Assembly: GCA_900617105.1 (NCBI GenBank)
Contig: UYFQ01000586.1
Location: 62,001-95,280 of the forward strand
Reading direction: 5' to 3'
DNA length: 33,280 bases
DNA from: Hydrurus foetidus
Taxonomy: Eukaryota
Numbering within the stretch: position 1 is the first letter of the stretch; each line of letters starts with the position of its first letter. A program made the translations under genes and the position numbers. Shown here in pieces: positions 10,639-32,500 of this stretch. A model generated the notes under the pieces. The model searched no databases, had not been told where the DNA came from, and was given only the letters and a program-made list of their open reading frames with translations.

Positions 10639-13600
10639 ATGACGTTGGCTGACTTCACGGCATGGTCGCGCGCGACCGACAGTCATGCACCGTCAGTTCT
10701 ACCACCCCCTGATGAAGGCGACTACATCAGGGAGCTAGGAGGGATCGAAAAATTCTTGTCGAGAAAAATTCCCGGTACAGACAAGGTTGACTGTTATGAG
10801 TAACAAGTGCCGTCAGCATATTGACTGATTTACGTCAGCTACAAACAGATTTCATTATCTCAATTGCATTATTGCGACCAGCTCTGCATTACTTTCGGAT
10901 CAGTTTATGTCCTGGACGGCGCTGTTTCGCATGACGCTCTTCTTGACGCGGTGGAGCGAGTCATGACGAGGTATCATTTCCTGAATGAAGATAAACCTGA
11001 ACCTGTGGCAAAAGAGTCTAGTTTGTATAAGAGTTGAGATGTGATTTGCTGGAAATGCAAAGGTCGCGCAATGTCGAAGAGATGACAAGTGACCCGAGTC
11101 TAAAAACCATTTGCAGAACATTCTCAACAAAAGTTATTAACGCCACGGCATATTTCAAATCAATAACTCTGCAGGCATCCGATGCTCCGATGTTATCCGA
11201 AGACGAGTCCTAAGGATGGGAAAGAATATTGGTGTCACTGTGCTCAAGAATGCATTCCGCAGAACATGAACAGTGCAGTTCAGACCGAACAAGTGAGTGG
11301 ACGAGAGACCAAGGGACTGTGTCAGCAATTAATTGCAATAATTGTAGAATGTTGCAATAATTGAAATTAGTAGTTTGGATGGAAAAGAACATTGCAACTA
11401 AGGGACAGACATGAAGTGTTGTACAGCGCGATATAGTACAGCTCACTACAGCGCACCGTAGTGTAATACAGTATATTACGATACAATACATACAATACAA
11501 CATAATGCAATACATCATATCCATTAACTTTACATCACTTTGCTCTGATATGATTATGTCTCCATGTTTCTCTTCATGCTCAATGTCACTGAGTTTGTTG
11601 TCCTGCACCGTAGCTGCGTCTGAGATTATCTTCTAGATAATCATCAGTGTTTTGTACAGTATAGTATAGTATAGTGTAGTATCGTATAGTATAGTATAGT
11701 ATAGTATAGTATAGTATAGTATAGTATAGTATAGTATAGTATAGTATTGTATAGTATTGTGTAGTATCGTATAGTATAGTGTAGTATAGTATAGTATAGT
11801 ATAGTATAGTATAGTATAGTATAGTATAGTATAGTATAGTATAGTATAGTATAGTGTAGTACGGTATAGTACAGTACAGTACGTATAGTAGCTGCCTCGA
11901 CTATTATCCCCATCTTCATTTTCCCTCAGCAGATATTTGCTTTTCTGACAGCTTTGAAATGTTTCAGGTGCCTGACAAAGAGTTTGAGCAGCACTGCCAT
12001 CGAGAGTTAGAACGTTCTCTGAATGAAGGAATGTTCCCTGAGCATGGTCCACAATGGTGGTACGGAGCGGAACGTACTGTACTGTACTGTACTGTACTTC
12101 TGATTCTGCTGTGCTGTACTGTACTTCTGATTCTGCTGTGCTGTGATGTATCGCGTTGTGTTGTGTTTTCTGATTCGATTCGCATAACGTCACTGTCATT
12201 TGTGCTCGTAAGTAGCAGTGTCATCACCATCACAATTATCATCATCGACACAATGATAAGTAATATTTTTGCCACCATCATCGTTTACTCTCTGTAAGGA
12301 TGAGGAACATCGTAAGTACGAGTGAAGAAAGATCGTGCTGGGTGTTCTGCTTCAATCATGGAATAAACGACCAAAAGGCAACAAATTTGATGGTCACCGA
12401 GTTATTAGATGCTATTTCATCTAATGCGCCATTCAAGGGATTGAATCCATTTAATGCAGTGATCAGCAAATCGATAACGGATGACATCAAGTTCAACAAT
12501 GGGCAAAAAGAAACGCAAGTTGAGAACCATCCTGAAACATTCAACAAAATGGAAATGGAGATGACCGCAAATGCTTTCAAAAATATCGATAACAAGCCTA
12601 AAATAGATTTGGCTTCTCCATTTCCGCGTAGTCTCGAAAGTGCATTGCACTGCGGGATGTCGTTGGATAGTCTGGGGGAGTGGGAGAAATTGCAGTCACA
12701 GGACCATTATGAAAATGAGGCGTCTCGCGTACCTGACAAGATCCGTCAAAACTACGCAAAGCACCCCGATATATTCGCACACTACGGAAATCCTCTCACT
12801 AGAAAAGCGTTTGTGGATTTAATTCAATTGAGCGAAGAAGACACTGCCCGCCTTGTGTTGAAATGTCGGTTAAAGGGGGTTACTGTGACGAGTGTGTTGA
12901 GCGCTGCTGTGCTGCTAGTGACCTCTGTCTTTCTCCAAAACAAGGGCGGTGATAAAGGGGAAGAGGAGGAGGGGGAGGGGGAGGAGCGAGATAGAGAGGG
13001 GGCGAAGAAAGATGATTTGAATTTCCGAGAGAGAAGACAGGAAAATCAATTAGAAGGGACACTTGATATCGTTGATGTTGAGAATATAAGTGTGAAGCAA
13101 GATGAGATGAAGAGAAAAGATGAGGAGAGGGGAAAGAAAGGGGGCGAGAAAGAGAAGGAGGCAGATAAAGAGGAGGTGGAGGGTGTGGGATCTCAGATTC
13201 TGAAGTTCTACCTGGCCGTGGACTCAAGACCGTACGGTACGTTAGAACGTACGCTACTTCCCTTTTCATACTGCTATTCTACAGTATTATATAATGTTTG
13301 ACATGTACTGTAGTTCGCGTCACAATGGGCATCCTGAACATCGATGATTAAATGCCATAATTCAATGCATTGCCAACGCCCATCGAGTTCACCGCACCCA
13401 CTGCACCAGTCGATTTCAACCCCATCTACTATACGAAACATTAATGGCGCTCAACCTATTGTGTACACATCTACTTCTGCCCCTGCACCTCATGATGAAT
13501 GAGAAGCCTCAAGTTGCGAACTATTCGCCTTCTCTTTTATGTTTTCTTCTCCTCTCTTCGTTCGTCTTCCTCCCCCCGTTTGTTGTCAAAAACAAGCATT

Positions 13601-15960: not shown

Positions 15961-16193
15961 TGCCTGAATGGCTCAGAATTATGAGATTCTCGCGCGTTGT
16001 CGGTAAAGATAAATCTGAAGGACCAACCAGGGAATACTACAGTGCCAGATGCGAAATTGACTACAGCGATTCGAATGTCCAGCGGATGCTTAGCGCATTC
16101 TATCGAGATGTTGACGATGGAGGAAGAAATGATTTGATTAAGAAACAACATATACTTTGTGTTGGAGAGGTATTACCGTAGCAGAATAAAATG

Positions 16194-17189
16194 TAGAGCT
16201 TCTTACCGACGTCGAAAATCCGTGTCGGTAAATATGCCGGTTACTTTTACCATTTACCGGCCACACCGACCGGTAAATTACACCGGGTACACCGGGTATG
16301 CCGGAAACATACACCGGGTACACCGGGCGTAGTCTGGCCGGATTTATAGTAGGATAAGGGACCGAAATGTTGATCGTCGAACACAAATCAATCTGGGCCT
16401 CCAGCACCTATTCTCCACAGAATTTGACGCTCAACGGCTCCAGTTTCACGTTGTCAACCATCATCGACAACCTCTGCTCTTTTTCAGCAAATTTAATGAT
16501 GACCAACGTGAGAATTAATTTAATGATGACCAAATTTAATGATGAAAGAAGTAAGGGAACCTACATCTTTCCGCTTTTTGACTGCCTCCACTGCAGTGTG
16601 TTCATCGTAAACGTCCCGGTGTTTGTAAAGAAAGTGGTTTAACAGAGCGCTGGTGCTCTTGCTTTTTCCATAGTTAATAATCTTCTTGCATACGTCGCAT
16701 GTCGGATTGGGACTTGTAGAACTAAGAAAGTTCCACACCCAAGATAATTTTTTGGACTTTGCAGCAGCGACTATCGAAAGATCAATCACTGGATCCACCA
16801 CTGGTGCAGGATCACCTATAGGTGCTGGAGATGGCACCGCTATGTTGGAAGAACTAGCGCTTGCCGATGATGCAGACGGCGTCGAATTTGAAATGTTCAA
16901 CATTTTTTCAATTATTTTAGCGAAGAGCTTTCGAAAGGTATCGATGAGCAGGTAGATAGTAGATATTGACGTTGATTATCAGTAGTACTGTGCTAAATGC
17001 TATCTCCTCTATGCTTAAGTCAGGAAACTTAGCGACCAATTACCGATGGTTCTCGCATTATTCTGTATCGGTAAAGTGTCGGTAAAGTACCGGTATATAC
17101 CGGCCCTTTTTATTTGGTGTCGGTAAACTTACCGATACCGATACCGGCCGGTATTTGCCGGCCGGCATCGGTGTCGGTAAGAAGCTCTA
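16194..17189 (-). mobile_element. Non-autonomous hAT DNA transposon (996 bp, internal-deletion derivative)
   Basis: Perfect 17-bp TIR TAGAGCTTCTTACCGAC; 8-bp TSD ATAAAATG at 16186-16193 and 17190-17197; many subterminal ACCGG/CCGGT motifs; BED-finger ORF inside. Confidence 0.93.
16520..16903 (-). pseudogene. Truncated hAT transposase N-terminus (BED zinc finger)
   Basis: SWVWNFL...CDVC...STSALLNHFLYKH matches the BED consensus; no DDE or dimerisation domain follows. Confidence 0.88.
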
Positions 17190-17400
17190 ATAAAATGTCT
17201 GCTTTTCGTGCCCAAAACTCAAACACCTCGGGTCACGTCCAAATCACCCCACACCATACTAAAAAAGCAAAAAATCTGGGGAACCTTCCTCTTTTTGATT
17301 TTTAGTATGGTGTGGGCTCCGTTTTTGACCATGCCACACACACGTTTGAGTTGGATTTTGGGCATGAAAAGCAGACATTTTATTCTGGTACGGTAATATC

Positions 17401-17724
17401 TGTTGGAATATCTTTGAGTTCCTAGGTCGCGTACGAACGAGGTAGTACAGCGCCGAAAGAGATCAAGGCCAAGGCTCGCGAAATAAGACAACCGTAGTCA
17501 GTAATCACTTGTTAATTTGACTGTGCTTCATCCCTGCTGAAGTCCCCGAGTCCCTTTCAACGCAACAACAATATATTCCTACACTACACTTGAAGTACAA
17601 AACAAATGCATGGGTCCATACATCTCATTCACGTGCCACACACACACACACAATGATCCGTACGTCCGTACGAATGCATAAGTACACAGATTGTGTTCGT
17701 GTCATAACTATGATATCTCCAACA
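17401..17724 (-). repeat. 3' LTR of copia A
   Basis: Direct repeat of 22650-22973; contains a (CA)n tract. Confidence 0.97.
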
Positions 17725-17733
17725 CACCCCTAT
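17725..17733 (-). other. Polypurine tract of copia A
   Basis: ATAGGGGTG immediately before the 3' LTR on the minus strand. Confidence 0.7.
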
Positions 17734-17793
17734 GCCACATCACAATCGATACTCATTCACACATCAAACATAAGTCGTCGTAAAAATAAAAGT

Positions 17794-20700
17794 CTAAACT
17801 AAAGTGTCGTCTTCCCATCCGGTAATCCCACGTCTCTCCGATCTGAATTGAATCCCCTGCAGCGGCTTGGTCAGGAGGTTGGCGTACATGTCCTTGGTCC
17901 CCAGGTGGCGCACTCTCGCCTCGCCTTGGTCCACTCGCTCCTTGAGCCAGAAATACTTGATCGCTATGTGCCTCGTCCTCTCCGCCGCTGACCGTCCTCT
18001 CTCGATAAGGGACATGCATGACATGTTGTCTTGATACACGGTGACCGGCCCACACAAGTGTCCCTGACCTATGATAAAATTTCTTAGGTATAAGGCTTGG
18101 TTAGAAGAGTCGGACAGAGCCACCAACTCCGCCTCAGTGCTCGACTTCGTCACGATCTGCTGCTTCGCCGACTTGCAATGCACCGCACCCCTCTCTCCGA
18201 TCACAACGCAGCTCCCCGTGTGCGACTTCCCATCGGGGTGCACCCCGTATGCCGCATCGATGAGCACACTGATCACGATCCCCTTGTCCCCAGGTGCAAA
18301 TACGATGCCCCTATCTCGAGTGCAGCACACATACTTGAGTAGCCGCTCTAGCTTCACCAGATCATCGACGCTGCACTTGGTCACCCTGGTCGCGAGGAAC
18401 GCCACAGCTGTCAGGCAGTCAGGCCTTGCACGCTTCGCCAGGTACAGTAGCTTCGCAACCAGTCGGTGGAACCTCACCCGCTGTTCCTCAGTCGCCATCC
18501 CAGCACACTCCCTCACATCGAAGAGCCCTTCCGTGGCGGGTGTCCTCGCCCCTCCGACCGTTCCACTCTCCTTGAGCATGTCTTCTACGTACCCACACAT
18601 CGACACCTTGGCTGTACCTACAGTAGATAAGTCGAAAACCATGCCTAGATAGTTAACCACAGGTCCATTCTTTCTTGTGATATCACCATACCTTTTGATC
18701 AACCCGGTAACAAATGCCTCGATCATTCCTTCATCTATGCTCATGATCATTAGATCATCGACGTGCACTGCCACAGTGCATTGCACCCCGTATTCGTTGC
18801 ATTTGTTGAATACGCATATGTCATGCGTATTAGCCACGTACCCCAGCTCCGACAGACTGTCCCTGAGATTCTCATACCATAGGGCCGCCGACTCCACGCA
18901 CCCATACAATGCCTTATCCAGCCGCACAACGACACACCCCTTAGTGTCCACATAGTTCCTATACTCTGGTGCTAATTTAATCATAATGTCGGTCATGTTC
19001 CTGTCCAGTCGCATATGCACTGTAAGTCCCGTCGTCATATCGGCATTGAGAAATGCTCCGCTAATGTCGACTACCGTGATGCATCGTCTCTCGTGGGCTG
19101 CAATGCTCAACAGTGTAAACACCGAACTAGTCCCAACTGTTGGCGCCGACAAGTCGTCGTATAAATCCCTATCCTGCTGGTTTCCTCCAGCAACCAGCCG
19201 TGCCTTTAATTTCTCAAAATCCCCGCTTGCGAGGAATTTCTCCTTCAGGAACATGCTTGAACGGATGATCCTATGCTTCTCCTCGCGAGACAGCTGTCTC
19301 AGATCAACCGGTGCCCACACCTTCTTGTTGATCATTTGTCCGAGCTCCTTCTCGATCACGCTCACTGCGGCATCCCCTCTCGTTCTCAATGCTTCGTTGA
19401 CCGATATATTAAAAACATGCTCACCCCAGTCCTTTCCATCCCCTGAGTAATCTCTCGTGAGTAGTGCCAGTCCCCCATTTCCCCCACGGAAATAAGTCAT
19501 GAAATCTTCACGCCTCATGCGGACGTCCTGTCCCGGCCTTGCCATCATGCGCTTCTCAAGCATCTCCCTCTCGGCATTCCCCTGCACCCCTACCGTCTCA
19601 TCACTCCCAGTGTATGCACTGCTCCCCGAAGTGTAGTCGATCGGAACACCCTGCTCGTCGAACTTCTCGTAACTGTCTTCCGTACGCACATAAGGGCCCA
19701 CCTCGAGACTCTTAAGGCTGTCAATGAGATCGTCCATCTCGACTGGCTTCGGCTTCGCTGGAAGTCGGAGCGGCGCGATAGCGTCATCAGCATACGTCGG
19801 ATGATTCAGGTCATATGTCATGTCTGTTGCCCCGTTTTCTTGGTGCTCACTCACGTCTGGTATATCATCGATCATGTCTGTAAACTCATCACCGTCTAGC
19901 ACAGCTACCGCCGGGTCTATCCCATCATTCACCACGATCTCAATCGTATCGGGCAATCTCTTTTTAGCGTCGCTGTCTTGGTCGTATGATGTCACGCGCC
20001 CATCTAACTCACCCTTCCCTTTCACTCTGCTGTCTTCGAGCGCCATCTCATTTAGTCGCTTGATCGCTGAATCTGGCATGGGGAGTATACGGAATTGATC
20101 TCTATTCACCAGTCGACCCGTGCTCAATGACAGCATTCTGACAGACCCGGTTCGGTTCCCCAGAGGGAGCATCACCACGCAATCCTCAGTTCTCGCTTTC
20201 ATCGAATTATCTGTGTTTGGAACAGTACATTGCGCGTAGTCACCAAATGAACATCTGAAATCTCGCTTACCATCTGGTTTCCTTCCTATAAATGCCTCGC
20301 GTGGGCTGGGGCCCGAACCGCACGGTTCATAGTTCAGCCTAGATATAACGTACAGTACGCACATAGTGACACCCACGGTAGATAATGTGAAAGGTAGGTG
20401 GTACGCAACATGCGCCCGTACTCTCTCCTTAATTACTCGAATTCTGCGTTCGATCCTAGCAACATGTCCTCCGGCACCGCTGATGTCAACTTCGACCCCG
20501 AGCATTCCCAGCTCGTCGACGAGGCTAGTCACTGCTCCCTCTCCATCGCTCATAATCACCGACGTTCGGAAGTTTTGAGACGATAGAACGGCGAGGAAAT
20601 GCGTTATGCCCTTCCTCACCTCCGCTGCTGCCCTCGAAGACTTCTTTGACGCTATGTTATTGAGGCTGTATGCAATCGTTAGACCCAGTGGCGTAGCCAC

Positions 20701-22623
20701 GCCGATTAGTATAGCCAATTTTTCAATAAACATAATATCGATTGACAGCACCTGATCTCTTTGTGCGATTTTTGTGCTGACGACAACATCAGCGATAGCA
20801 GTAGCACGTTTGCATGTTTTCCCTTTTAGGGAAGCAATATCTTTCCCCCAGATAGCCTCAGCGACTTGGAAGTCTCGCGCTGTAACTTCGAAATTGCTCC
20901 CCGCATTGACGATCGACATTGCTTGCTCTATTGTCGGGAAGCCCATCCTCGCCAGTAGCTCTCGCGCTCTGCGGGCTCTCTCTACCTCCCGTTTACTGAA
21001 TGCTGCTGTATTCTCAACTACAGTCGTCACTAGAGTCACTTCCGTATCGACGTCGCGCCAATCGCATGAGTAGAATCGTCCTTCGCTTCCCTCAACATGT
21101 TTCCGACCGAAACGGTAAATCCTTCCGCTACCCTTCGGCTGCAGAGTGAAACAGTCTTCCTCGTGGTCATATCTAACTGTCGCCCCAGCGTCGACTTGCG
21201 ATGCGAATGATAGAATGTTCGCTGAAGCCGATCCACTGTAAAACACCGTCCCGAACTCGCCAAAATCTCCTTCACGATCGACGGACACGCCGACTCCTTC
21301 CTGAATCCCAGATACCTTGATCGATTTGCTCGCTTTCCTTAGGCCGGTGAGTAACTCGGCGTTGTTAAATATGTTTAGTGACGCTTCATTGTCAAGTAGG
21401 ACGTCGTATCTCGAGAAACAACACCTCTCCACCGACGCAACCAAAGCAACACCCCACTCATCACGCTCGCTTTCGTCATCACCTTCTGGCTCTTCAATCG
21501 ATACGTGGACTTTTCCCAATGACGATTTACGTTTCGGACAGTCTCTCACGTAGTGTCCTTTCTCCTCGCACAGGTAACATTCCACATCAGCTAGAGACTT
21601 CTTCTTGGCCCCCCCGGTCTTCCCTGCCTTCTTCTCAGCAGGATCCTTGGCTGCGGTGACGTGTGCGCTGTCTGTAACGTACGCGGCGTTCGGTGCACCG
21701 GGAGTGGGAGTGAGTGGTGTGTCATCGTCATGCCAGCCAGATGCGATGTGGAATGCCTCGGCTAGGGTCTTGGGGAACGCGTCCGGTTTGCGGCGGAGTG
21801 CGTCGTTCTTCATGCTGTCGTGCATCTTTTTGTACCGCTTAGGATCCAGTTTCCCGAGGAAGTCGAGTGCTCTCTTCGACTCGGACACCTCCGGCACTCC
21901 TACAGCGTGATTTGCTTCGACCTGTTCGTCGAATCTGTTCTTGAATGTAACAATGAATTCTCTCTCACCTTGTCTCATTGATCCGTACTTACTCTCCTGT
22001 TGGTGTTGATTGATTTCCATTGTCGAATCGTCACTACCATGCAGGTGGGTGAGGTGAGTCTTCCTGATCATCGCCCATAGCATGATGGAGTCGAGCGTCA
22101 TGTACGCTTCACGAAAATTTGGTTCCTCTCGTACCCTGGTCTGTGATGCGACGGACATACGCTTCCACATCATCGGGTACATCGTACGTTCGTTCTCTTT
22201 CTGTGACTTGAGGTCGCGCTTCCTTTGGATGTAATCTTCCTCCCTGAATTTCGCCCTCGATCTTTCAGACGCTTTTCTCCTTCTTTCGTTTCTAACCGCT
22301 CGCGCCGCTCTTCGCGCCTGCTTTTCACGGGCGTTCAATGCAAGTCGTTCTGCACTTACGACCGGTTGTTCGGGGTCCTGAACTTCGTCTTCTGACTCCG
22401 AACTCGAGCTCTCCGAGGATGAATCCGCAGGGTAATCCCTGTAGGAAAGTCTCGGTTGCTCGTATCTTTCGTTGGTGGTAAAGAACATGCCGACGATCCC
22501 GTACAGTTCGGTGGCAATCGTCTGCATATGTTCCCTCCATTTTATGATGTTGCTGTTTTTGCCGTACTGAAGCATACACTCCTCTGTACTCTTCGAAGCT
22601 TCGACGGCGCGTTTGGGAGGCAT
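17794..22623 (-). CDS. Gag-Pol polyprotein (1609 aa): gag, CCHC knuckle, protease, integrase, reverse transcriptase, RNase H
   Basis: CYLCEEKGHYVRDC knuckle; LLDNEAS protease site; integrase SID/SDGEG/IERR; RT KARLVAGG, DISGAFL, LDKALYG, HVDD; RNase H IDAAY, STEAEL, QDN, LTKPL. Confidence 0.97.
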   Translation of the reverse strand: MPPKRAVEASKSTEECMLQYGKNSNIIKWREHMQTIATELYGIVGMFFTTNERYEQPRLSYRDYPADSSSESSSSESEDEVQDPEQPVVSAERLALNAREKQARRAARAVRNERRRKASERSRAKFREEDYIQRKRDLKSQKENERTMYPMMWKRMSVASQTRVREEPNFREAYMTLDSIMLWAMIRKTHLTHLHGSDDSTMEINQHQQESKYGSMRQGEREFIVTFKNRFDEQVEANHAVGVPEVSESKRALDFLGKLDPKRYKKMHDSMKNDALRRKPDAFPKTLAEAFHIASGWHDDDTPLTPTPGAPNAAYVTDSAHVTAAKDPAEKKAGKTGGAKKKSLADVECYLCEEKGHYVRDCPKRKSSLGKVHVSIEEPEGDDESERDEWGVALVASVERCCFSRYDVLLDNEASLNIFNNAELLTGLRKASKSIKVSGIQEGVGVSVDREGDFGEFGTVFYSGSASANILSFASQVDAGATVRYDHEEDCFTLQPKGSGRIYRFGRKHVEGSEGRFYSCDWRDVDTEVTLVTTVVENTAAFSKREVERARRARELLARMGFPTIEQAMSIVNAGSNFEVTARDFQVAEAIWGKDIASLKGKTCKRATAIADVVVSTKIAQRDQVLSIDIMFIEKLAILIGVATPLGLTIAYSLNNIASKKSSRAAAEVRKGITHFLAVLSSQNFRTSVIMSDGEGAVTSLVDELGMLGVEVDISGAGGHVARIERRIRVIKERVRAHVAYHLPFTLSTVGVTMCVLYVISRLNYEPCGSGPSPREAFIGRKPDGKRDFRCSFGDYAQCTVPNTDNSMKARTEDCVVMLPLGNRTGSVRMLSLSTGRLVNRDQFRILPMPDSAIKRLNEMALEDSRVKGKGELDGRVTSYDQDSDAKKRLPDTIEIVVNDGIDPAVAVLDGDEFTDMIDDIPDVSEHQENGATDMTYDLNHPTYADDAIAPLRLPAKPKPVEMDDLIDSLKSLEVGPYVRTEDSYEKFDEQGVPIDYTSGSSAYTGSDETVGVQGNAEREMLEKRMMARPGQDVRMRREDFMTYFRGGNGGLALLTRDYSGDGKDWGEHVFNISVNEALRTRGDAAVSVIEKELGQMINKKVWAPVDLRQLSREEKHRIIRSSMFLKEKFLASGDFEKLKARLVAGGNQQDRDLYDDLSAPTVGTSSVFTLLSIAAHERRCITVVDISGAFLNADMTTGLTVHMRLDRNMTDIMIKLAPEYRNYVDTKGCVVVRLDKALYGCVESAALWYENLRDSLSELGYVANTHDICVFNKCNEYGVQCTVAVHVDDLMIMSIDEGMIEAFVTGLIKRYGDITRKNGPVVNYLGMVFDLSTVGTAKVSMCGYVEDMLKESGTVGGARTPATEGLFDVRECAGMATEEQRVRFHRLVAKLLYLAKRARPDCLTAVAFLATRVTKCSVDDLVKLERLLKYVCCTRDRGIVFAPGDKGIVISVLIDAAYGVHPDGKSHTGSCVVIGERGAVHCKSAKQQIVTKSSTEAELVALSDSSNQALYLRNFIIGQGHLCGPVTVYQDNMSCMSLIERGRSAAERTRHIAIKYFWLKERVDQGEARVRHLGTKDMYANLLTKPLQGIQFRSERRGITGWEDDTLV

Positions 22624-22638
22624 TGAAGAATGCCGGTG

Positions 22639-22649
22639 CAGTCAAATTA
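22639..22649 (-). other. Non-tRNA primer-binding site of copia A (TAATTTGACTG)
   Basis: Abuts the 5' LTR, lacks TGG, and is the exact complement of LTR bases 22762-22772. Confidence 0.75.
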
Positions 22650-22973
22650 TGTTGGAATATCTTTGAGTTCCTAGGTCGCGTACGAACGAGGTAGTACAGC
22701 GCCGAAAGAGATCAAGGCCAAGGCTCGCGAAATAAGACAACCGTAGTCAGTAATCACTTGTTAATTTGACTGTGCTTCATCCCTGCTGAAGTCCCCGAGT
22801 CCCTTTCAACGCAACAACAATATATTCCTACACTACACTTGAAGTACAAAACAAATGCATGGGTCCATACATCTCATTCACGTGCCACACACACACACAC
22901 AATGATCCGTACGTCCGTACGAATGCATAAGTACACAGATTGTGTTCGTGTCATAACTATGATATCTCCAACA
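22650..22973 (-). repeat. 5' LTR of copia A
   Basis: Direct repeat of 17401-17724; only 26 nt separate it from the gag ATG. Confidence 0.97.
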
Positions 22974-22978
22974 GTATA

Positions 22979-23312
22979 GTAGTTTATGACACGGACACAA
23001 TCAGTGTACTTATGCATTCGTACGGTCGTACGGATTAATTTGTGTGTGTGTGTGTGTGTGTGTGGGTGTGCGCGTACATGCGTGACGACGATGAATGGAC
23101 CCGTGCATCGTCTCTGTACTTCAAGCGTAGTGTAGAATGTCTTTTGTTGTTGCGTTGAAAGGGACTCGGGGACTTCAGCAGGGATGAAGCACAGTCAATT
23201 AACAAGTGTTTACTGCCATACAAGAGCTTATTTCACGAGTCCTGACCGAGTGACCTTCAACCACAGTACAGCGAGAGGCGTACGTGTGGGCCGAACCGAA
23301 GATTCGTCAACA
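22979..23312 (+). repeat. Main part of the 5' LTR of copia B
   Basis: Matches 28245-28580 apart from a few substitutions and the GT-tract length. Confidence 0.95.
23144..23198 (+). promoter_or_regulatory. Candidate TATA-less LTR core promoter/initiator block
   Basis: 55 bp identical between the otherwise diverged A and B LTRs, ending in an Inr-like CAGTC. Confidence 0.45.
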
Positions 23313-23322
23313 TAATTGTCTG
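23313..23322 (+). other. Non-tRNA primer-binding site of copia B (TAATTGTCTG)
   Basis: Abuts the 5' LTR; 9/10 complementary to CAGTCAATTA at 23192-23201. Confidence 0.7.
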
Positions 23323-23336
23323 CCACAGGCATTCCG

Positions 23337-26300
23337 ATGCCTCCCAAACGCGCCGCAGAAGCTTTCAAAAGTACAGAGGAGTGTATACTTCAATGCGGCA
23401 AACACAACAACATTATCAAGGGAGAGAGCACATGCAAACGGTTGTAACCGAACTATACGGGATAGTTGGCATGTTCTTCACCACAAATGTGAGATACGAG
23501 CTCCCAAGAGTTTCTTACAGGGATTACCCTGCAGATTCGTCATCGGAAAGCTCCAGTTCCGAAGAAGATGACGAGATAGTTGAAGGTCAACAGGAACAAC
23601 CGCCTGACCCAGAGACCGTGGCGTACGCCGCCGCGAGGCCTGCTCGCATCGCCGCCAGACAGGCGAGGAACAACCGCCTGACCCTATGTTTCACCGATTG
23701 CGCCAAGTCTTGAGAAACGTGTCGAAATGACAACGTTTGCTTGAATCCTGAGTTCTCCAACCAAATGCTTTGGAAGGACTTCTGAAAACTCGGTGGACCG
23801 CGTGGACAGAAGTCTAGCTAAATAGGTGGATGGGTAGTAGGGGGCCAAGTAGTAGAATTTAGAAGGGAAAGCGGAACGAGTAGATCTACTGTAGTCCAAA
23901 TGTAGCTGGAGGTGTCAGAAAGGTAGTTTAGCTTACAACGAGAAAGAGAGGGGATGGGCTAGCAGAGGTGTAAAACTCTGCATGCAAAGCGTTGCAAGGT
24001 AAACTAACAGTCTGCGAGAGGTCGGAAGGACTCTCAGCCACAGGTACGGACGGCTATCCGGTACTACGGAGGGTGGGAATGTGGTACTAAATCCTGTACC
24101 ATCACAAGGAGGCGTGAAGCGTCAGAGCGCTCTAGAGCAAAATTTAAAGAAGATGATTACATACAGAGAAAGAGGGACATCAAAACGCAGAAAGAGAACG
24201 AACGTACGATGTACCCGATGATGTGGAAGCGCCTGTCGCTGCTATCACAAAGTAGGTTGAGGGAGGAGGAAGAAATTCAAGACCGCATATGACACCCTGG
24301 ACTGTGTCATGTTGTGGACGCTCATAAGGAGGACTCACCTCACACACATGTACGGGGGCGATGAGACACTGCAGGAGTACAACCAACACGAACAGGAGAG
24401 TAAGTACGGCTCAATGAGGCAAGGTGAGAGAGAGCACATTGTCACCTTCAAGAACAGATTCGATAAACAGGTGACCGCGAACGCTGCTGTCGGAATCGCC
24501 GCGGTGACAGAGTCGAAGCGAGCATTGGATTTCCTAGGGAAGCTCGACACTCGAAGGTACAAGGTCATGCTAGACGACATGAAGTATGACGCCTTACGAC
24601 GCCCAACCACGCTCGCCCTAGCTTTCCACATCGCCTCAGAGTGGAATGACCGAGTCCCTGCATCCACACTCACACCGGCGGGTGCGAACGCAGCGTACGT
24701 GACCGAGGGAGTCCACGTCACAGCGGCCAAGAACCCGGAAAAGAAAGCGGGGAAAGCCGGAGGTGGCAGCAAGAAATTCTTAGCAGACGTCGAGTGCTAC
24801 AAATGCGAAACAATGGATCTATCGGTTCGGGAGAAAGCGAGTCATAGGAAGCGAGGGGAGGTTCTACTCGTGCGACTAGAGGGATGTCGAGCACGACAAA
24901 GCGTTAGTAACTACGGTGGTTGAGAATCTGAAAGCATTTACGAAACGAGAGATCGAGCAGGCGAGACGAGCTCGTGAGCTGCTCGCTAGGATGGGCTTCC
25001 CGACGGTGGAATAGGCGATGTCGATCGTGAACAGCGGAAGTAATTTCGACATTACGGCGAGAGATTTCCAGATCGCTGATGCGATATGGGGCAAAGATAT
25101 AGCCTCTATAAAAGGGAAAACAGTGAAGAGAGCTACTGCTATCGCTGATATTACAGTCAGCACGAAATTGATGCAAAGGGATCAGGTGCTGTCTATCGAC
25201 ATTATGTTTATAGACAAACTAGCGATACTAGTCGGGGTATCTACACCACTGGGACTAACTATTGCATATAGCCTAAACACAGCAGATCTAACAAAGCCAG
25301 CAAGGACAGCAGCCCAAGTAAAGATCGGGATAAACCATTTTATCGCAGTCCTCGCTGCGCAAAACTTCAGGACCTCCATAATCATGATCGACGGAGAGGG
25401 GGCTGTCAAGAGTCTCATTGACGAGCTGGGACGGCTCGGTGTGGAGGTTGACGTGAGTGGAGCCGGCGGCCACGTCGCTAGGATTGAGAGAAAAATTCGC
25501 ATTGTTGGAGAACGGGTACGATGTCACGTAGCGTACCACCTTCCGTTCACACTATCGACGGTGGGTATCGCCATGCTCGTACTGTACTGTATATCCAGGC
25601 TGAACTACGAACCGGCCGGATTACGGGAATGGGGCCCGAGTCCGCGTGAAGCATACATCGGTAGGAAGCCTGATGGTAAGAGAGACTTTAGATGCTCGTT
25701 CGGAGATTATGTGCAATGTACCGTTCCTAACACTGATTCAGGATTCAAGAGCCGAACCGAGGACTGTGTGGTTATGCTCCCCCTCGGAAATCGCACGGGC
25801 TCAGTGAGAATGCTTTCGCTCAGCACAGGAAGACTAGTGTGCAGGGACCAATTCAGAGTGCTACCGATGCCCGAGTCCGTTATAAAGAGACTAAATGAAC
25901 TCGCGCATGCAGATGGTAGAGTAAAAGGGAAGGGTGATCTGTACGCACGGCCCACGTCGTACGAGCAGTACAGGAACGCTGCCAAGGGACTGCCTGACAC
26001 GATGGAACCCAACTTCAACAACGGTGTGGATCCATCGATAGAACCTCTAGATGATGACCGTGAGACTAGAAACGAAGAGGTAGACAATGGTGACCAGCAT
26101 CAAGACAGTGGAGGAGAATTGGGTGAAGAACAGTACGACAACGGCGAAGCACCGAACGAAGTAGACCCGAGGGACGACAGTGAACCATACGAGGAAGCGG
26201 TACAGGCCGAACAACCTGAAGAGCGCGACAATGATATGGATGATCTGGTCGATAGTATGAACCGGATGCGAGCCGGGCCGAGGGACCAAGTTGAAGATCC

Positions 26301-28157
26301 CACGGGGGGATTAGATGAGAGGGGTATACCGGAGGACTACACATCGACAGACGGGACACGAGACGAGTACAGCGAAGCGAGAGGAGCAGTGAGCCGAGCG
26401 ACGGAGCTGCTCGCTGCACCTGCACCGTACTACGGGATAAGTAGACATGAGGTGATGAACTTTTTTAGGAACGGTGGTGGAACCGCACTTCTAACGCGCA
26501 ACTACGACGGTGACGGTGCAGACTGGGGAGACTATGTACTTAACATATCGGTGAACGAAGCGCTGAGGACCAGGGGTGATGCGGCGCTGAGTGTGATTGA
26601 AAAAGAGCTAAAGCAGATGGTCGATAAGAAGGTGTGGGCACCTGTCTCTGTGAGCGACCTATCAACGGAGGAGAAGCACCGAATCATCAGGTCAAGCATG
26701 TTCCTGAAGGAGAAATTCCTCGCGAGCGGGGAGTTCGAGAAGCTTAAGGCGAGGCTGGTCGCCGGAGGGAACCAGCAGGATCGAGATCTATACGATGATC
26801 TATCGGCACCGACAGTTGCGACGAGCTCAGTGTTCACACTGCTGAGCATAGCAGCGCACGAGAATAGGATGATCACAGTGATTGACATCAGCGGCACATT
26901 CCTCAATGCGGACATGGATACGGGACCAGCGGTGCACATGAGGTTAGATAGGATCATGTCGAACATTATGACTAAATTGGCTCCCCATTACTCGCGCTTC
27001 ACAGATCATAAGGGGTGCATAGTGGTGAAGCTGGACAAGGCACTGTATGGGTGTGTGGAGTCGGCTGCACTATGGTACGAGAACCTGAGAGCGAGCCTGT
27101 CCGATTTGGGATACTCACCCAATGTACACGACATGTGTGTCTTCAACAAACACGACGAGTACGGGATGCAATGCACTATTGCGGTGCACGTAGATGATCT
27201 GATGATCACTGGTGCGAACGGTGAAATGATCGAGTCAGTGTCGGCCGGTCTGATAAAAAGGTATGGAGACATTACGAGGAAAAATGGACCTATTGTGAAT
27301 TACCTAGGCATGGTGTTCGACCTTACCACTGCAGGCAGAGCGCGAGTGTCGATGACGGGATACGTGGAGGACATGCTGAGGGAAAGCGGCACAACAGGGG
27401 GTGCAAGGACCCCAGTAACGGAGGGGCTGTTCGATGTGAGAGACGACAGCGACATGGCGAGTGAGGAGCAGCGGGTACGGTTCCACAGATTGGTGGCGAA
27501 AATGCTCTACCTGGCGAAGCGTGCGAGGCCCGACTGTCTGACGGCGGTGGCATATCTGGCAACACTGGTAACACGGTGCAGCGTGGACGACCTGGGAAGC
27601 TTGAGCGTCTGTTGAAGTATGTGAACAACACGAAGGATAGAGGTATAGTGTTCGAGACGGGTGCGAAGGGAATCGTCGTGAGTGTTCTCATCGATGCGGC
27701 GTACGGAGTACATCCGGACGGGAGGTCGCACACGGGGAGCTGCGTGGTGATCGGAACAAGGGGTGCGGTGCACAGCAAATCGGCGAAGCAACAGATCGTC
27801 ACCAAGTCGAGTACGGAGGCGGAGCTCGTTGCATTATCTGACTCAACTAACCAAGCGCTTCACATGAGACACTTCATTATAGGACAAGGGCACACGTGCG
27901 GACCAGTGACAGTGTACCAAGACAACATGTCATGCATGTCACTGATCGAGAGAGGGCGGTCAGCGGCGGAGCAGACGCGCCATATCGCCATCAGATACTT
28001 TTGGCTCAAGGAAAGGGCGGATCAAGGAGAAGCGAGAGTGCGACACCTGGGGACCAAGGAGATGTACGCGGACCTTCTGACGAAGCCGCTACAAGGTGCA
28101 CAGTTCAAGTGCGAGAGACAAGGGCTTACGGGATGGGACGCAACCACAGTAGTTTAG
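23337..28157 (+). pseudogene. Disrupted gag-pol of copia B
   Basis: Starts MPPKRA like A. Frameshifts near 23420, 24240-24260 and 27595; insertion 23673-24104; ~450-bp deletion near 24810 removing half of the Zn knuckle and the protease site; in-frame TAG stops near 24877 and 25012. Confidence 0.93.
23687..24104. mobile_element. Isolated LTR-like insert (418 bp) of an unrelated family inside B gag
   Basis: Absent from the aligned position in A; TGTT...CATCA ends; shares AGTAGATCTACTGT and end style with 30135-30523. Confidence 0.65.
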
Positions 28158-28229
28158 TTAAATTATTACGACAACATATGCGTGATGTGTGAATAGAAAT
28201 GATTTGATTAAGAAACAACATATACTTTG

Positions 28230-28304
28230 TGTTGGAGAGGTATCGTAGTTTATGACACGGACACAATCAGTGTACTTATGCATTCGTACGGTCGTACGGA
28301 TTAA

Positions 28305-28343
<39 letters not shown>

Positions 28344-28580
28344 ACATGCGTGACGACGATGAATGGACCCGTGCATCGTCTCTGTACTTCAAGCGTAGTG
28401 TAGAATGTCTTTTGTTGTTGCGTTGAAAGGGACTCGGGGACTTCAGCAGGGATGAAGCACAGTCAATTAACAAGTGTTTACTGCCATACAAGAGCTTATT
28501 TCACGAGTCCTGACCGAGTGACCTTCAACCACAGTACAGCGAGAGGCGTACGTGTGGGCCGAACCGAAGATCCGTCAACA
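28230..28580 (+). repeat. 3' LTR of copia B (351 bp)
   Basis: TGTTGGAGAGG...CGTCAACA followed by TSD CTTTG. Confidence 0.95.
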
Positions 28581-28626
28581 CTTTGATCCAAGACTGCGCC
28601 GCCCAGCCGCCCCGTACCCATATACC

Positions 28627-29473
28627 GATTGTACCCCGTTTCGTAAATTTCACTTCGAAAATCTCGTTTCGGAATTTTCACTTTGTAAATTTCAGATCGG
28701 AAATCTCGTTCCGTAAAAACCGCTTCGTAATTCTCGTTGTAAATTATCATGTTGTAAATTTCACTACGTAGCTTTTGCATCGTAACAGTGTAGCGTGGGA
28801 GTGAAACTTCAAGTGATTCTATTTATAATGCTCGAAGTATACACTATTCAGTCATACATGACTGCATCGTGTACCCAAGAAGTGGTACACCAATACAACC
28901 AAATTGAATGATGTCAAGCAGCATTGCTCACACGTTCAGCATAGTCATGCAGTACATGATTGATCATCGCTATGTCACTTGGCTACACGATGCAGTAATG
29001 TATATTTTCAAAGTGTTCATGTATTTGATAATACTGACTGTGCTTGTTAAGGGTCATTCTATACGGCGACGAATTTGGACGAATTCAGGCGAATTCAATC
29101 GAGAAATTCGATTGAATTTCGTTGACCTGTTTTTGACCCCTCTGAATTTTACCGAATTCAGTGGCTGTTCTCCACTGAATTCGCCTGAATTCCGCAAAAT
29201 CGTGTCTGTATAGAATGACCCTAAGGTTGATGCAAGTGACATAGCGATGATCAATCATGTACTGCATGACTATGCTGAACGTGTGAGCAATGCTGCTTGA
29301 CATCATTCAATGTTGGTTGTATTGGTGTACCACTTCTTGGGTACACGATGCAGTCATGTATGACTGAATAGTGTATACTTCGAGCATTATAAATAGAATC
29401 ACTTGAAGTTTCACTCCCACGCTACACTGTTACGATGCAAAAGTTAAGTGAAATTTACGACGTGGGAATCAAC
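28627..29473. mobile_element. Mutator-like/foldback non-autonomous element
   Basis: ~210-bp near-perfect inverted arms at 28772-28981 and 29233-29442; GTAAATTTCAC subterminal motifs; 10-bp direct repeat CCCATATACC at 28617-28626 and 29474-29483. Confidence 0.7.
29051..29221. mobile_element. Tourist-like (PIF/Harbinger) MITE, 171 bp
   Basis: 14-bp TIR GGGTCATTCTATAC; TAA TSD at 29048-29050 and 29222-29224; internal GAATTC/GAATTT repeats. Confidence 0.9.
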
Positions 29474-29705: not shown

Positions 29706-30038
29706 AGTACCGAAGCAGAGCTAGTGGGACTGAGTGACTAGGCTAATCAAGTGCTGTGGACACGACTGTTCCTTATTGATCAAGGATATCAAGACAGGAG
29801 CACCATCATATTTCAAGACAATAAATCGACAATTCAACTTATTAACAACGGTCGCTCCAACAGCGAACGTACACGCCATATCAATATGCGGTACTTCTTC
29901 CTACATGACCGTGTAAGATAAAAGGAAACCGCCATCATATACAAACCAACAACCGACATGTTAGCAGATATGCTAACAAAACCACTGCAAGGAGAGCAGT
30001 TCAGAGTTTTTCGAGACAAACTACTCGGCATCACCTGA
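29706..30038 (+). pseudogene. Copia RNase H remnant (two in-frame stops)
   Basis: STEAELVGLSD*ANQVLW...IFQDNKST...ERTRHINMRYFF...LADMLTKPLQG. Confidence 0.92.
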
Positions 30039-30523: not shown

Positions 30524-30771
30524 GTGCTGCACCATCGCCACCGTGCTCCGGCACCTTTAAGGGGAGTATCACAGCCTCCGATATGACCGCATCACAGCAG
30601 CAGGAGACCCATGTTGGACACCCACTGGAGTCGACCGCTGACCCAATACAGTTGTCCTAACAACTTCTCCCTTCATTGAAAATACCTCTGAGCAGTGCTG
30701 CACCATCGCCACCGTGCTCCGGCAAATTTAAGGGGAGTATCACAGCCTCCAACATGACCGCATCACAGCAG
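30522..30771 (+). repeat. 79-bp direct repeat (30522-30600 and 30693-30771), each copy carrying TTAAGGGGAGT
   Basis: Direct comparison shows a few mismatches; the second copy abuts the copia RT fragment. Confidence 0.85.
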
Positions 30772-31749
30772 TAGAATCTGCCAACCTATGGTATAATAAA
30801 CTATCCAGTGATTTGATTAAACTCAATTATACTGCTAATGAATTTGACTTCTGCGTATTCAATAGAACTGAATTAGACAACACACAAACATCACTCGTAA
30901 TACATGTTGACGATATGATTGTTACTGCTTCAAATGAATCTCGCGTTGATGATGTTATTCAGCAAATTGAAACTTTATACCCCGGTCTAACCAAACATCA
31001 CGGAAATTTTTTAAATTACATAGGAACGACTTTCGACTTCACTGAGGAAGGTAGCGTTAAGATGACTATCCAAGGATTCGTGCAAGACCTCATTGAGGGG
31101 TGTAAGGACATGCTGGGCCACCTGCACAACCTACCATATTCACTGTACCTGCCGAATGTGACTCACCTTTACCTAATAACTTGCGTAAGCGTTTCCATTC
31201 TATTACAGCGAAGCTCCTCTACTTGAGCAAGAGGACGAGGCCAGATATCTTGACTGCCGTAGCGTTCCTGACCAAGAGAGTGATAAAGCCCCAAAGGGAC
31301 GACTACAACAAATTGATCCGTACGGTACAGTACATGCAGGGTGCCCAGAACTTGGGCGTGACATTTGAAGTGCATGAACTAAAACATGTTATTGCATATA
31401 TCGATGCATCCTTCGCCATACACCCCGATATGAAAAGCCACGCAGGTTGCGTGATTGCCCTGGGAAAGGGAGCAATTTACGGTACCCAGCGCCTGATGAC
31501 GAAGTCAAGCACGGAGGCAGAGCTCGTAGCGCTTAGCGACTCCGCTAACCAAGTACTATGGACCCGCAATTTCCTACACTGTCAAGGACACCATCAACCA
31601 CCCACACTCATCCATCAGGACAACCAATCTACTATTCAGCTGATACGGAACGGACGTTCGAATAGCGAACGTACGCGCCATGTCGATATACGGTACTTTT
31701 TCCTACACGATAGGATGAGCACCGGCGATATAGATATACAATACCTACT
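30771..31749 (+). pseudogene. Copia RT-RNase H fragment (frameshifted, truncated by the next LTR)
   Basis: VESANLWY, DFCVFN, IHVDDM, LLYLSKRTRPDI, YIDASF, STEAELVALSD, HQDNQS. Confidence 0.92.
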
Positions 31750-32500
31750 TGTCAGAACACTTGATTCTATCAAGATATGTCTGTAGTAATATAGTTGCAA
31801 ATATAGTTTCAAATATATACATGTACGTTATGCGACACGTACGTACGTAAGTACACATGCAGATATGATAACATGCACACGTACGCACGTACTTACACAT
31901 GTTAGTGCATACTCATTTATGCATACGTACACACATGTACTTACACATGTACGTACATAGTCAATATGTACGTACGTACGTACTCACGCATATAGCATAG
32001 TGTACACTTGTATGGTCACGCACACCCGTACATACGTACGTGCACATGTTAGTACAAATTATTATATGCATACGTACACACACGTACTTACACATGTATG
32101 TACATATATAATATGTACGTATGTACGATCGCCAATAGCGTAGTACATAGATGTATAGGCGTACATACGTAAGTACCACTGTACTTACGCATGTACGTTC
32201 TTATACATACACATGCATACGTACTTCTATAATATCGCCATATAGCAGTTAGTACTCACGCATGTACGTTCATATACATATACACGCATACGTACCCCTG
32301 TACTATCGCCATGTATCAGTTAGTACGAACCCTCTGACCTCACGCAAATGAACGTTCGCCTTTCATGATTCTTCAGTATCGCCAAAACACTTCGTTACTA
32401 TAAGCATTCATGCAACGTTCCTCAAGCACATGCTATGAACAACACATCTCGCTGTGAACTTTGTCTCAAGGTAGTTTCACTGTCATGAACTGTTCTGATA
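31750..32500 (+). mobile_element. Probable 5' LTR (751 bp) of another LTR retrotransposon that runs off the window
   Basis: Cuts the copia RNase H abruptly; terminal inverted repeat TGTCAGAACA / TGTTCTGATA (9/10); TACG/ACAT low-complexity interior; gag-like ORF downstream. Confidence 0.6.

Follow-up and report, generated by a model that had tools for sequence, protein, structure and literature searches.

Ty1/copia elements of Hydrurus foetidus as likely self-primers of reverse transcription

Two Ty1/copia elements, A and B, in a stretch of Hydrurus foetidus DNA likely use their own RNA as the primer of reverse transcription in a Tf1-like manner, which we regard as the best explanation of the data presented here. 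The stretch, referred to below as the window, comprises 33,280 nucleotides (GenBank assembly GCA_900617105.1, contig UYFQ01000586.1, positions 62,001 to 95,280 of the forward strand; position 1 is its first letter). In each element, the primer-binding site (PBS) following the 5' LTR is complementary to a segment of the LTR itself. The pairing is kept with different letters in three distant relatives, so copying is likely primed by the 5' end of the element RNA in the lineage as a whole.

A and B are Ty1/copia elements, with domains in the order PR-IN-RT-RH, LTRs of the form TG...CA and a 5-bp target duplication. The reverse transcriptase is of the copia type in both (Pfam RVT_2, E 1e-23 in A and 2e-26 in B), and no Pfam integrase match was found. 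A search of the PDB using RT/RNase H returned no match. The parts of the two elements are:

17401..17724 (-): element A 3' LTR, identical to 22650-22973
17725..17736 (-): element A likely PPT, short and purine-rich, with GGGG-TG as its last bases ahead of the 3' LTR, from sequence
17794..22623 (-): element A single gag-pol ORF, 1609 aa, with CCHC knuckle, PR, IN, RT and RNase H in copia order (ORF; Pfam RVT_2, zf-CCHC)
22650..22973 (-): element A 5' LTR, 324 bp, TGTTG...CAACA, identical to 17401-17724
22974..23312 (+): element B 5' LTR, main part; first 13 bases at 16160-16172
23337..28157 (+): element B gag-pol, frameshifted into several frames (tblastn with A; Pfam RVT_2)
28230..28580 (+): element B 3' LTR, 351 bp, the second LTR copy

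Element A is young and intact, with one open frame between LTRs that are free of differences; the positions of its domain motifs were read by eye. The N terminus of its integrase (about 20950-20800 (-)), also read by eye, seems to be without the HHCC zinc motif. The GGG(G)TG-TGTTG junction of A recurs in seven related contigs (L002, L034-L037, L039 and L040). A GGCAT...ATGCC hairpin spans the gag start codon in both A (22623-22636 (-)) and B (23328-23341 (+)).

The LTRs of element B are 98% identical to each other, and its target duplication is the 5-bp CTTTG at 16155-16159 and 28581-28585. The first 13 bases of its 5' LTR are displaced because A and a TIR element were inserted there. At 28195-28229, a 35-bp copy of the host DNA flanking the 5' LTR (16125-16159) stands in place of the purine tract and ends in the target duplication of B. 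The replacement resembles a gene conversion with the 5' end as donor, by which the plus-strand primer site was removed.

The window contains several nested insertions and repeats. Element A was inserted 10 bp into the 5' LTR of B (16160-22978), with the likely duplication GTATC/GTATA, and the two now lie head to head. A TA-flanked TIR element (16173-17396) later split the left copy, and within the TIR element lies a non-autonomous hAT-like element (16194-17189) with 17-bp perfect TIRs and the 8-bp duplication ATAAAATG. The hAT-like element carries a BED-finger fragment (16520-16975 (-); Pfam zf-BED, E 0.0013, below the cut-off). Rfam matches at 22909-23106 were below threshold and were rejected, their source being the palindrome of the head-to-head LTRs together with GT repeats. 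Downstream of B are a foldback element of about 680 bp with near-perfect long inverted arms and adjoining 14-bp tandem units (28766-29449), TTAGGG-like repeats inside the contig (29612-29677), and two decayed RT/RNase H fragments, both without LTRs, from elements that belong to this copia group but are more distantly related (29706-30035 and 30732-31760). A 10-bp tandem array occupies 11609-11928.

The segments involved in the pairing are:

22639..22649 (-): A PBS TAATTTGACTG, adjoining the LTR without a spacer, no TGG, from sequence
22762..22772 (-): A predicted self-primer CAGTCAAATTA at the predicted RNA 5' end; exact complement of the PBS, helix in both MFE and centroid structures
22766..22820 (-): block of 55 nt without a difference between A and B, ending in the primer, from sequence
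23192..23201 (+): B predicted self-primer CAGTCAATTA, from sequence and alignment
23313..23322 (+): B PBS TAATTGTCTG, from sequence

Since the second LTR copies fix the LTR ends of A and B, the PBS positions are fixed as well. A preliminary description of the window had reported four strings, two PBSs and two complementary LTR segments, and all four are found at the positions listed above; the LTR segments start 123 nt (A) and 121 nt (B) before the LTR ends, as it had also stated. In A, the LTR segment is indeed an exact 11-nt complement of the PBS. Pairing begins at the first base past the CA of the LTR and stops sharply on both sides, and an 11-nt PBS match occurs in none of 3000 dinucleotide shuffles of A's LTR (mean 4.1). 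B as written pairs at nine of ten positions, also as described, with six contiguous pairs (p 0.04), and its mismatch is private to the copy in the window. Alignment of A and B bears out the claim of a compensated indel, B being one base shorter in both the LTR segment and the PBS. Because A and B are homologous, their pairings do not count as two independent events. The absence of an initial TGG is likewise upheld, as the PBSs begin TAATT.., TAAGA.. and CAATT.., and three controls from other clades begin with TGG.

Further copies of B were found in sequencing runs, mostly freshwater, sediment, biofilm and air metagenomes. At the mismatched position, 23319, the pairing base A is read at all depth and in all covering contigs in seven runs of seven studies (X1, X5, X6, X20, X14, X18 and X9; 15, 14-16, 11, 1, 7, 9 and 6 contigs per run). 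Once 23319 reads A, the B family has ten of ten pairs. Among the 40 of 58 substitution rows listed for B copies, 28 fall in the U5 that separates the primer from the PBS. None falls in the primer or elsewhere in 23150-23216, and the PBS shows a single one, which repairs the mismatch of B. Variation resumes at 23323, the first base past the pairing, with four rows at 23323-23325 among the same 40 of 58. Since the primer is part of a longer block without variation, and the LTR end next to the PBS hardly varies either, the 3' edge of the PBS is the only place where conservation is specific to the pairing. The 55-nt block shared by A and B is likely the core promoter, and between the pairing sites the R-U5 of A and B is identical at 68 of 110 aligned bases.

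Loose ends in these data hint at a further matched pair. A consensus PBS TAATTAGACTG (three contigs, agreement 0.83; a second row reads GACAG) is complementary to an LTR form CAGTCTAATTA, CAGTCT-AATTA (two contigs, agreement 0.88), yet the two are on different contigs and runs. For an LTR variant with an inserted G (six contigs), no partner PBS was found among the rows listed. The RNA run X20 is available as contigs only and one of these passes through the whole LTR, so that the start site cannot be placed from it.

The wider group supplies the covariation. Searches yielded 32 protein relatives with 42-77% identity over much of the polyprotein, and the RT/RNase H region gave 2001 matches among 7991 scored. 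Some 20 eukaryotic retrotransposon contigs, from several copia clades, lie in a bacterial bin (G001), where they are contamination. Nine distinct contigs of the wider group were examined (L001, L002, L003, L034-L040). L001, L002, L034, L035 and L036 are without an LTR-PBS junction, and L003 has a non-TGG PBS with only 55 LTR bases on the contig. Four contigs, all from G001, have both an LTR end and a gag start. In three of these, the pairing again starts from the first base after the LTR, and the letters differ: L037 (TAAGATTAA) has nine perfect pairs 62 nt from the LTR end (shuffle p 0.006), L038 (TAAGAATTAA) ten at 82 nt (p 0.0013) and L039 (CAATTTAGT) nine at 79 nt (p 0.0017). Their LTR ends, initially recognized by visual inspection, rest on one LTR copy plus the terminal repeat. 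The fourth, L040 (G001:C22), has only three pairs at the inverted-repeat end.

The three TGG-type controls, copia elements of other clades in G001, give matches of 3-5 nt, and 19 of 20 cross pairs between the PBS of one element and the LTR of another reach just 3-6 nt. The remaining cross pair, the L037 PBS with the L039 LTR, matches over 9 nt, which shows that AT-rich LTR motifs can produce such matches.

An RT/RNase H tree of 124 rows, a subsample of the proteins found (quick IQ-TREE, LG+G4, SH-aLRT only), places A, B, L037, L038 and L039 in one 58-row clade (SH-aLRT 99). L040, L002 and L003 are outside this clade and inside a 104-row group that is split from plant and TGG-type copia with a support of 100. 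Pairing is thus present in all five testable clade members, four of them independent, and the sole negative, L040, lies outside. The preliminary description had named LTR/PBS covariation across related families as a test of self-priming; that covariation is seen, with three distant relatives pairing through different letters, and it backs the self-priming reading from outside the window.

In element A, the RT and the first three acidic residues of RNase H are intact, and the fourth is N. This fourth position (17883-17878 (-); residue 1582 from the ATG in P0001) is N in 54 of 55 scorable clade members and D in all 44 neighbours and all 19 outgroup rows. The D-to-N change was considered as a marker of self-priming and rejected, as D is present in L039 and in the B copy.

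Other searches for relatives added little. No related loci were found in viral contigs or JGI metagenome contigs with peptide patterns, which were narrow, so that these empty scans are no evidence of absence; JGI proteins belonging to the clade do exist. A genome scan gave three loci, all in contaminated bins, and 802 further genomes gave one short fragment. Inspection of 26 further G001 sites with the LTR-end pattern (of 40 listed) revealed no new element.

Folding agrees with a helix at the front of the RNA. For RNAs starting at the LTR segment, the pair probability is about 0.95-1.0 in A, L037, L038 and L039, and the predicted helix closes a loop over R-U5. In A, the helix tolerates as many as about 30 extra nt at the 5' end of the RNA but no longer forms with 60 nt or more, and in L037 it is insensitive to the RNA start. 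The B helix with its mismatch falls from 0.95 to 0.09 after the addition of 15 leader bases. Folding from the segment favors the helix by design, so these values amount to a prediction of the start site rather than proof. Taken as a whole, the fold shows no unusual stability (z -1.05 and 0.62). The two helices that flank the primer duplex in the Tf1 'pretzel' were not detected, with none of ten tests under p 0.05 against shuffles in a crude test using 14-nt flanks.

By analogy with Tf1, transcription would start at or slightly before CAGTC, and the first 9-11 nt of the RNA would fold onto the PBS, closing a loop over R-U5. The element's RNase H may then cut just 3' of the duplex to free a 3'-OH, from which RT would extend into U5. 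Because there is no spacer between LTR and PBS, the primer would extend straight into U5. The Tf1 primer is reportedly copied into the next PBS. If the primer is likewise copied into the plus strand here, each new PBS would be templated by the primer, and an indel could then appear in both sites at once without a second mutation, provided that copying follows Tf1.

The alternative that survives best, though we consider it unlikely, is that a host tRNA half or other small RNA serves as the primer and that the LTR-PBS pairing is merely a structural or regulatory hairpin. Such use of host RNAs has precedent within copia: tRNA halves are described for the Osser, Bryco and Bianca lineages (in the portion consulted of PMC6317226), and the AT-rich PBS of a fungal copia, ATTAAGAGTCT, matches an internal part of a tRNA (from the part of PMC5445492 consulted). 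Moreover, Ty1 is tRNA-primed and yet has internal pairing of the first 7 nt of its RNA (PMC3592414). The expectation is a host RNA whose 3' end matches the PBS, TAATTTGACTG or TAATTGACTG; no tRNA gene was found within the window. Against it, the five PBSs are all different, two being one indel apart in the same host, and each would need its own host RNA. The pairing also covers the PBS exactly up to the LTR edge, where it would block a tRNA.

A second possibility, about half as credible, is that the pairing is functional in a role other than priming in cis, for example packaging, dimerization or priming in trans by a cut piece of a second RNA. The hairpin site of fungal GalEa elements, which have no PBS and a conserved hairpin of unknown role according to the part of PMC5445492 consulted, is comparable. 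The missing Tf1 flanking helices fit this explanation, as does L040, in which a perfect 15-bp hairpin joins the U5 end to the leader just before the ATG in a different register; this hairpin reads as self-priming only if the LTR ended 71 nt later. However, in five of five elements the 3' end of the LTR segment lies exactly opposite the first base after the LTR, a register that a primer requires. It is scarcely credible that the pairing arose by chance or was left behind by an ancient inversion at the edge of the LTR. In favor of this are the common origin of A and B, the AT-rich composition of the 9-nt matches and the one cross pair of 20 that also reaches 9 nt. Against it, the shuffle p values of 0.0003, 0.006, 0.0013 and 0.0017 come from four separate lineages with different letters and distances, and conservation has a sharp edge at 23323.

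Priming by the element's own RNA remains our preferred reading, and it has several consequences. Self-priming is proven only in the gypsy-type Tf1, and with the intact element A it could be tested directly whether a copia RT/RNase H is able to make its own primer by cutting an RNA duplex. Such a test also bears on whether self-priming had several origins or is ancestral, an ancestral state having been speculated on previously (PMC3601003). Self-primers would presumably be out of reach of regulation through the host's tRNA supply or through tRNA fragments, and annotation software that requires a tRNA PBS could be expected to miss or down-rank such elements.

Among known systems, the closest in mechanism is Tf1. 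The PBS of Tf1 anneals to bases 1-11 of the RNA, which RNase H then cleaves between bases 11 and 12 (PMC7175516, as far as consulted), and Tf1 needs two extra duplexes (PMC10085805, likewise). A and B resemble Tf1/Tf2 and the Tf1/sushi group in that about 11 LTR bases complement a PBS adjoining the 5' LTR, with release by RNase H predicted (compared with the consulted parts of PMC7175516 and PMC10085805). In contrast to the Tf1/sushi elements, which are Ty3/gypsy chromoviruses, they have an RVT_2 RT and integrase motifs before the RT, and no chromodomain was found in them; they are thus outside that group though working in a Tf1-like manner. Moreover, the mechanism is proven by experiment in Tf1, whereas here it is predicted and the pretzel duplexes are undetected.

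Within copia, the precedent given in the preliminary description, that self-priming had been proposed for the plant TAR group, proved right. In TAR (Houba, Osr-1, Fourf), self-priming is predicted in 89% of 203 elements, under a rule that asks for 10 or more LTR bases with their complement beginning 0-5 bp past the LTR (both from the portion of PMC6317226 consulted). By this rule A (11), the B family (10) and L038 (10) would count as self-priming, and L037 and L039 reach 9, one short. The clade is nevertheless far from P0035, the only named plant copia in the tree (27% identity), and may have an origin separate from TAR.

A further possible relationship is with the CoDi elements of diatoms. 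The Atlas neighbors of the RT/RNase H are eukaryotic clusters, with Bacillariophyta the commonest among the 3-4 members with a record, and a deep copia branch apart from plant and fly copia fits CoDiI/II by description only (the consulted part of PMC2806351). The main text of that paper, as far as consulted, contains no mention of tRNA or a primer-binding site, and in the literature searched, which took in few subscription papers, self-priming is not described for copia elements of diatoms or stramenopiles. Fungal GalEa is likewise a copia without a tRNA PBS, but its hairpin site is palindromic and has no complementary segment in the LTR (PMC5445492, in the part consulted).

The lineage is likely a 'protist' copia. 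It is conceivable, though we hold this only tentatively, that a large and as yet undescribed protist copia radiation, comprising the clade and the adjacent diatom-type elements, gave up tRNA primers separately from Tf1 and TAR, or has retained self-priming from an ancestor, using a bare 9-11 bp helix without the pretzel and a PBS rewritten from the RNA 5' end in each cycle. The mechanism itself is known from Tf1 and predicted in TAR; what is likely new is self-priming in the deep copia lineage of A and B.
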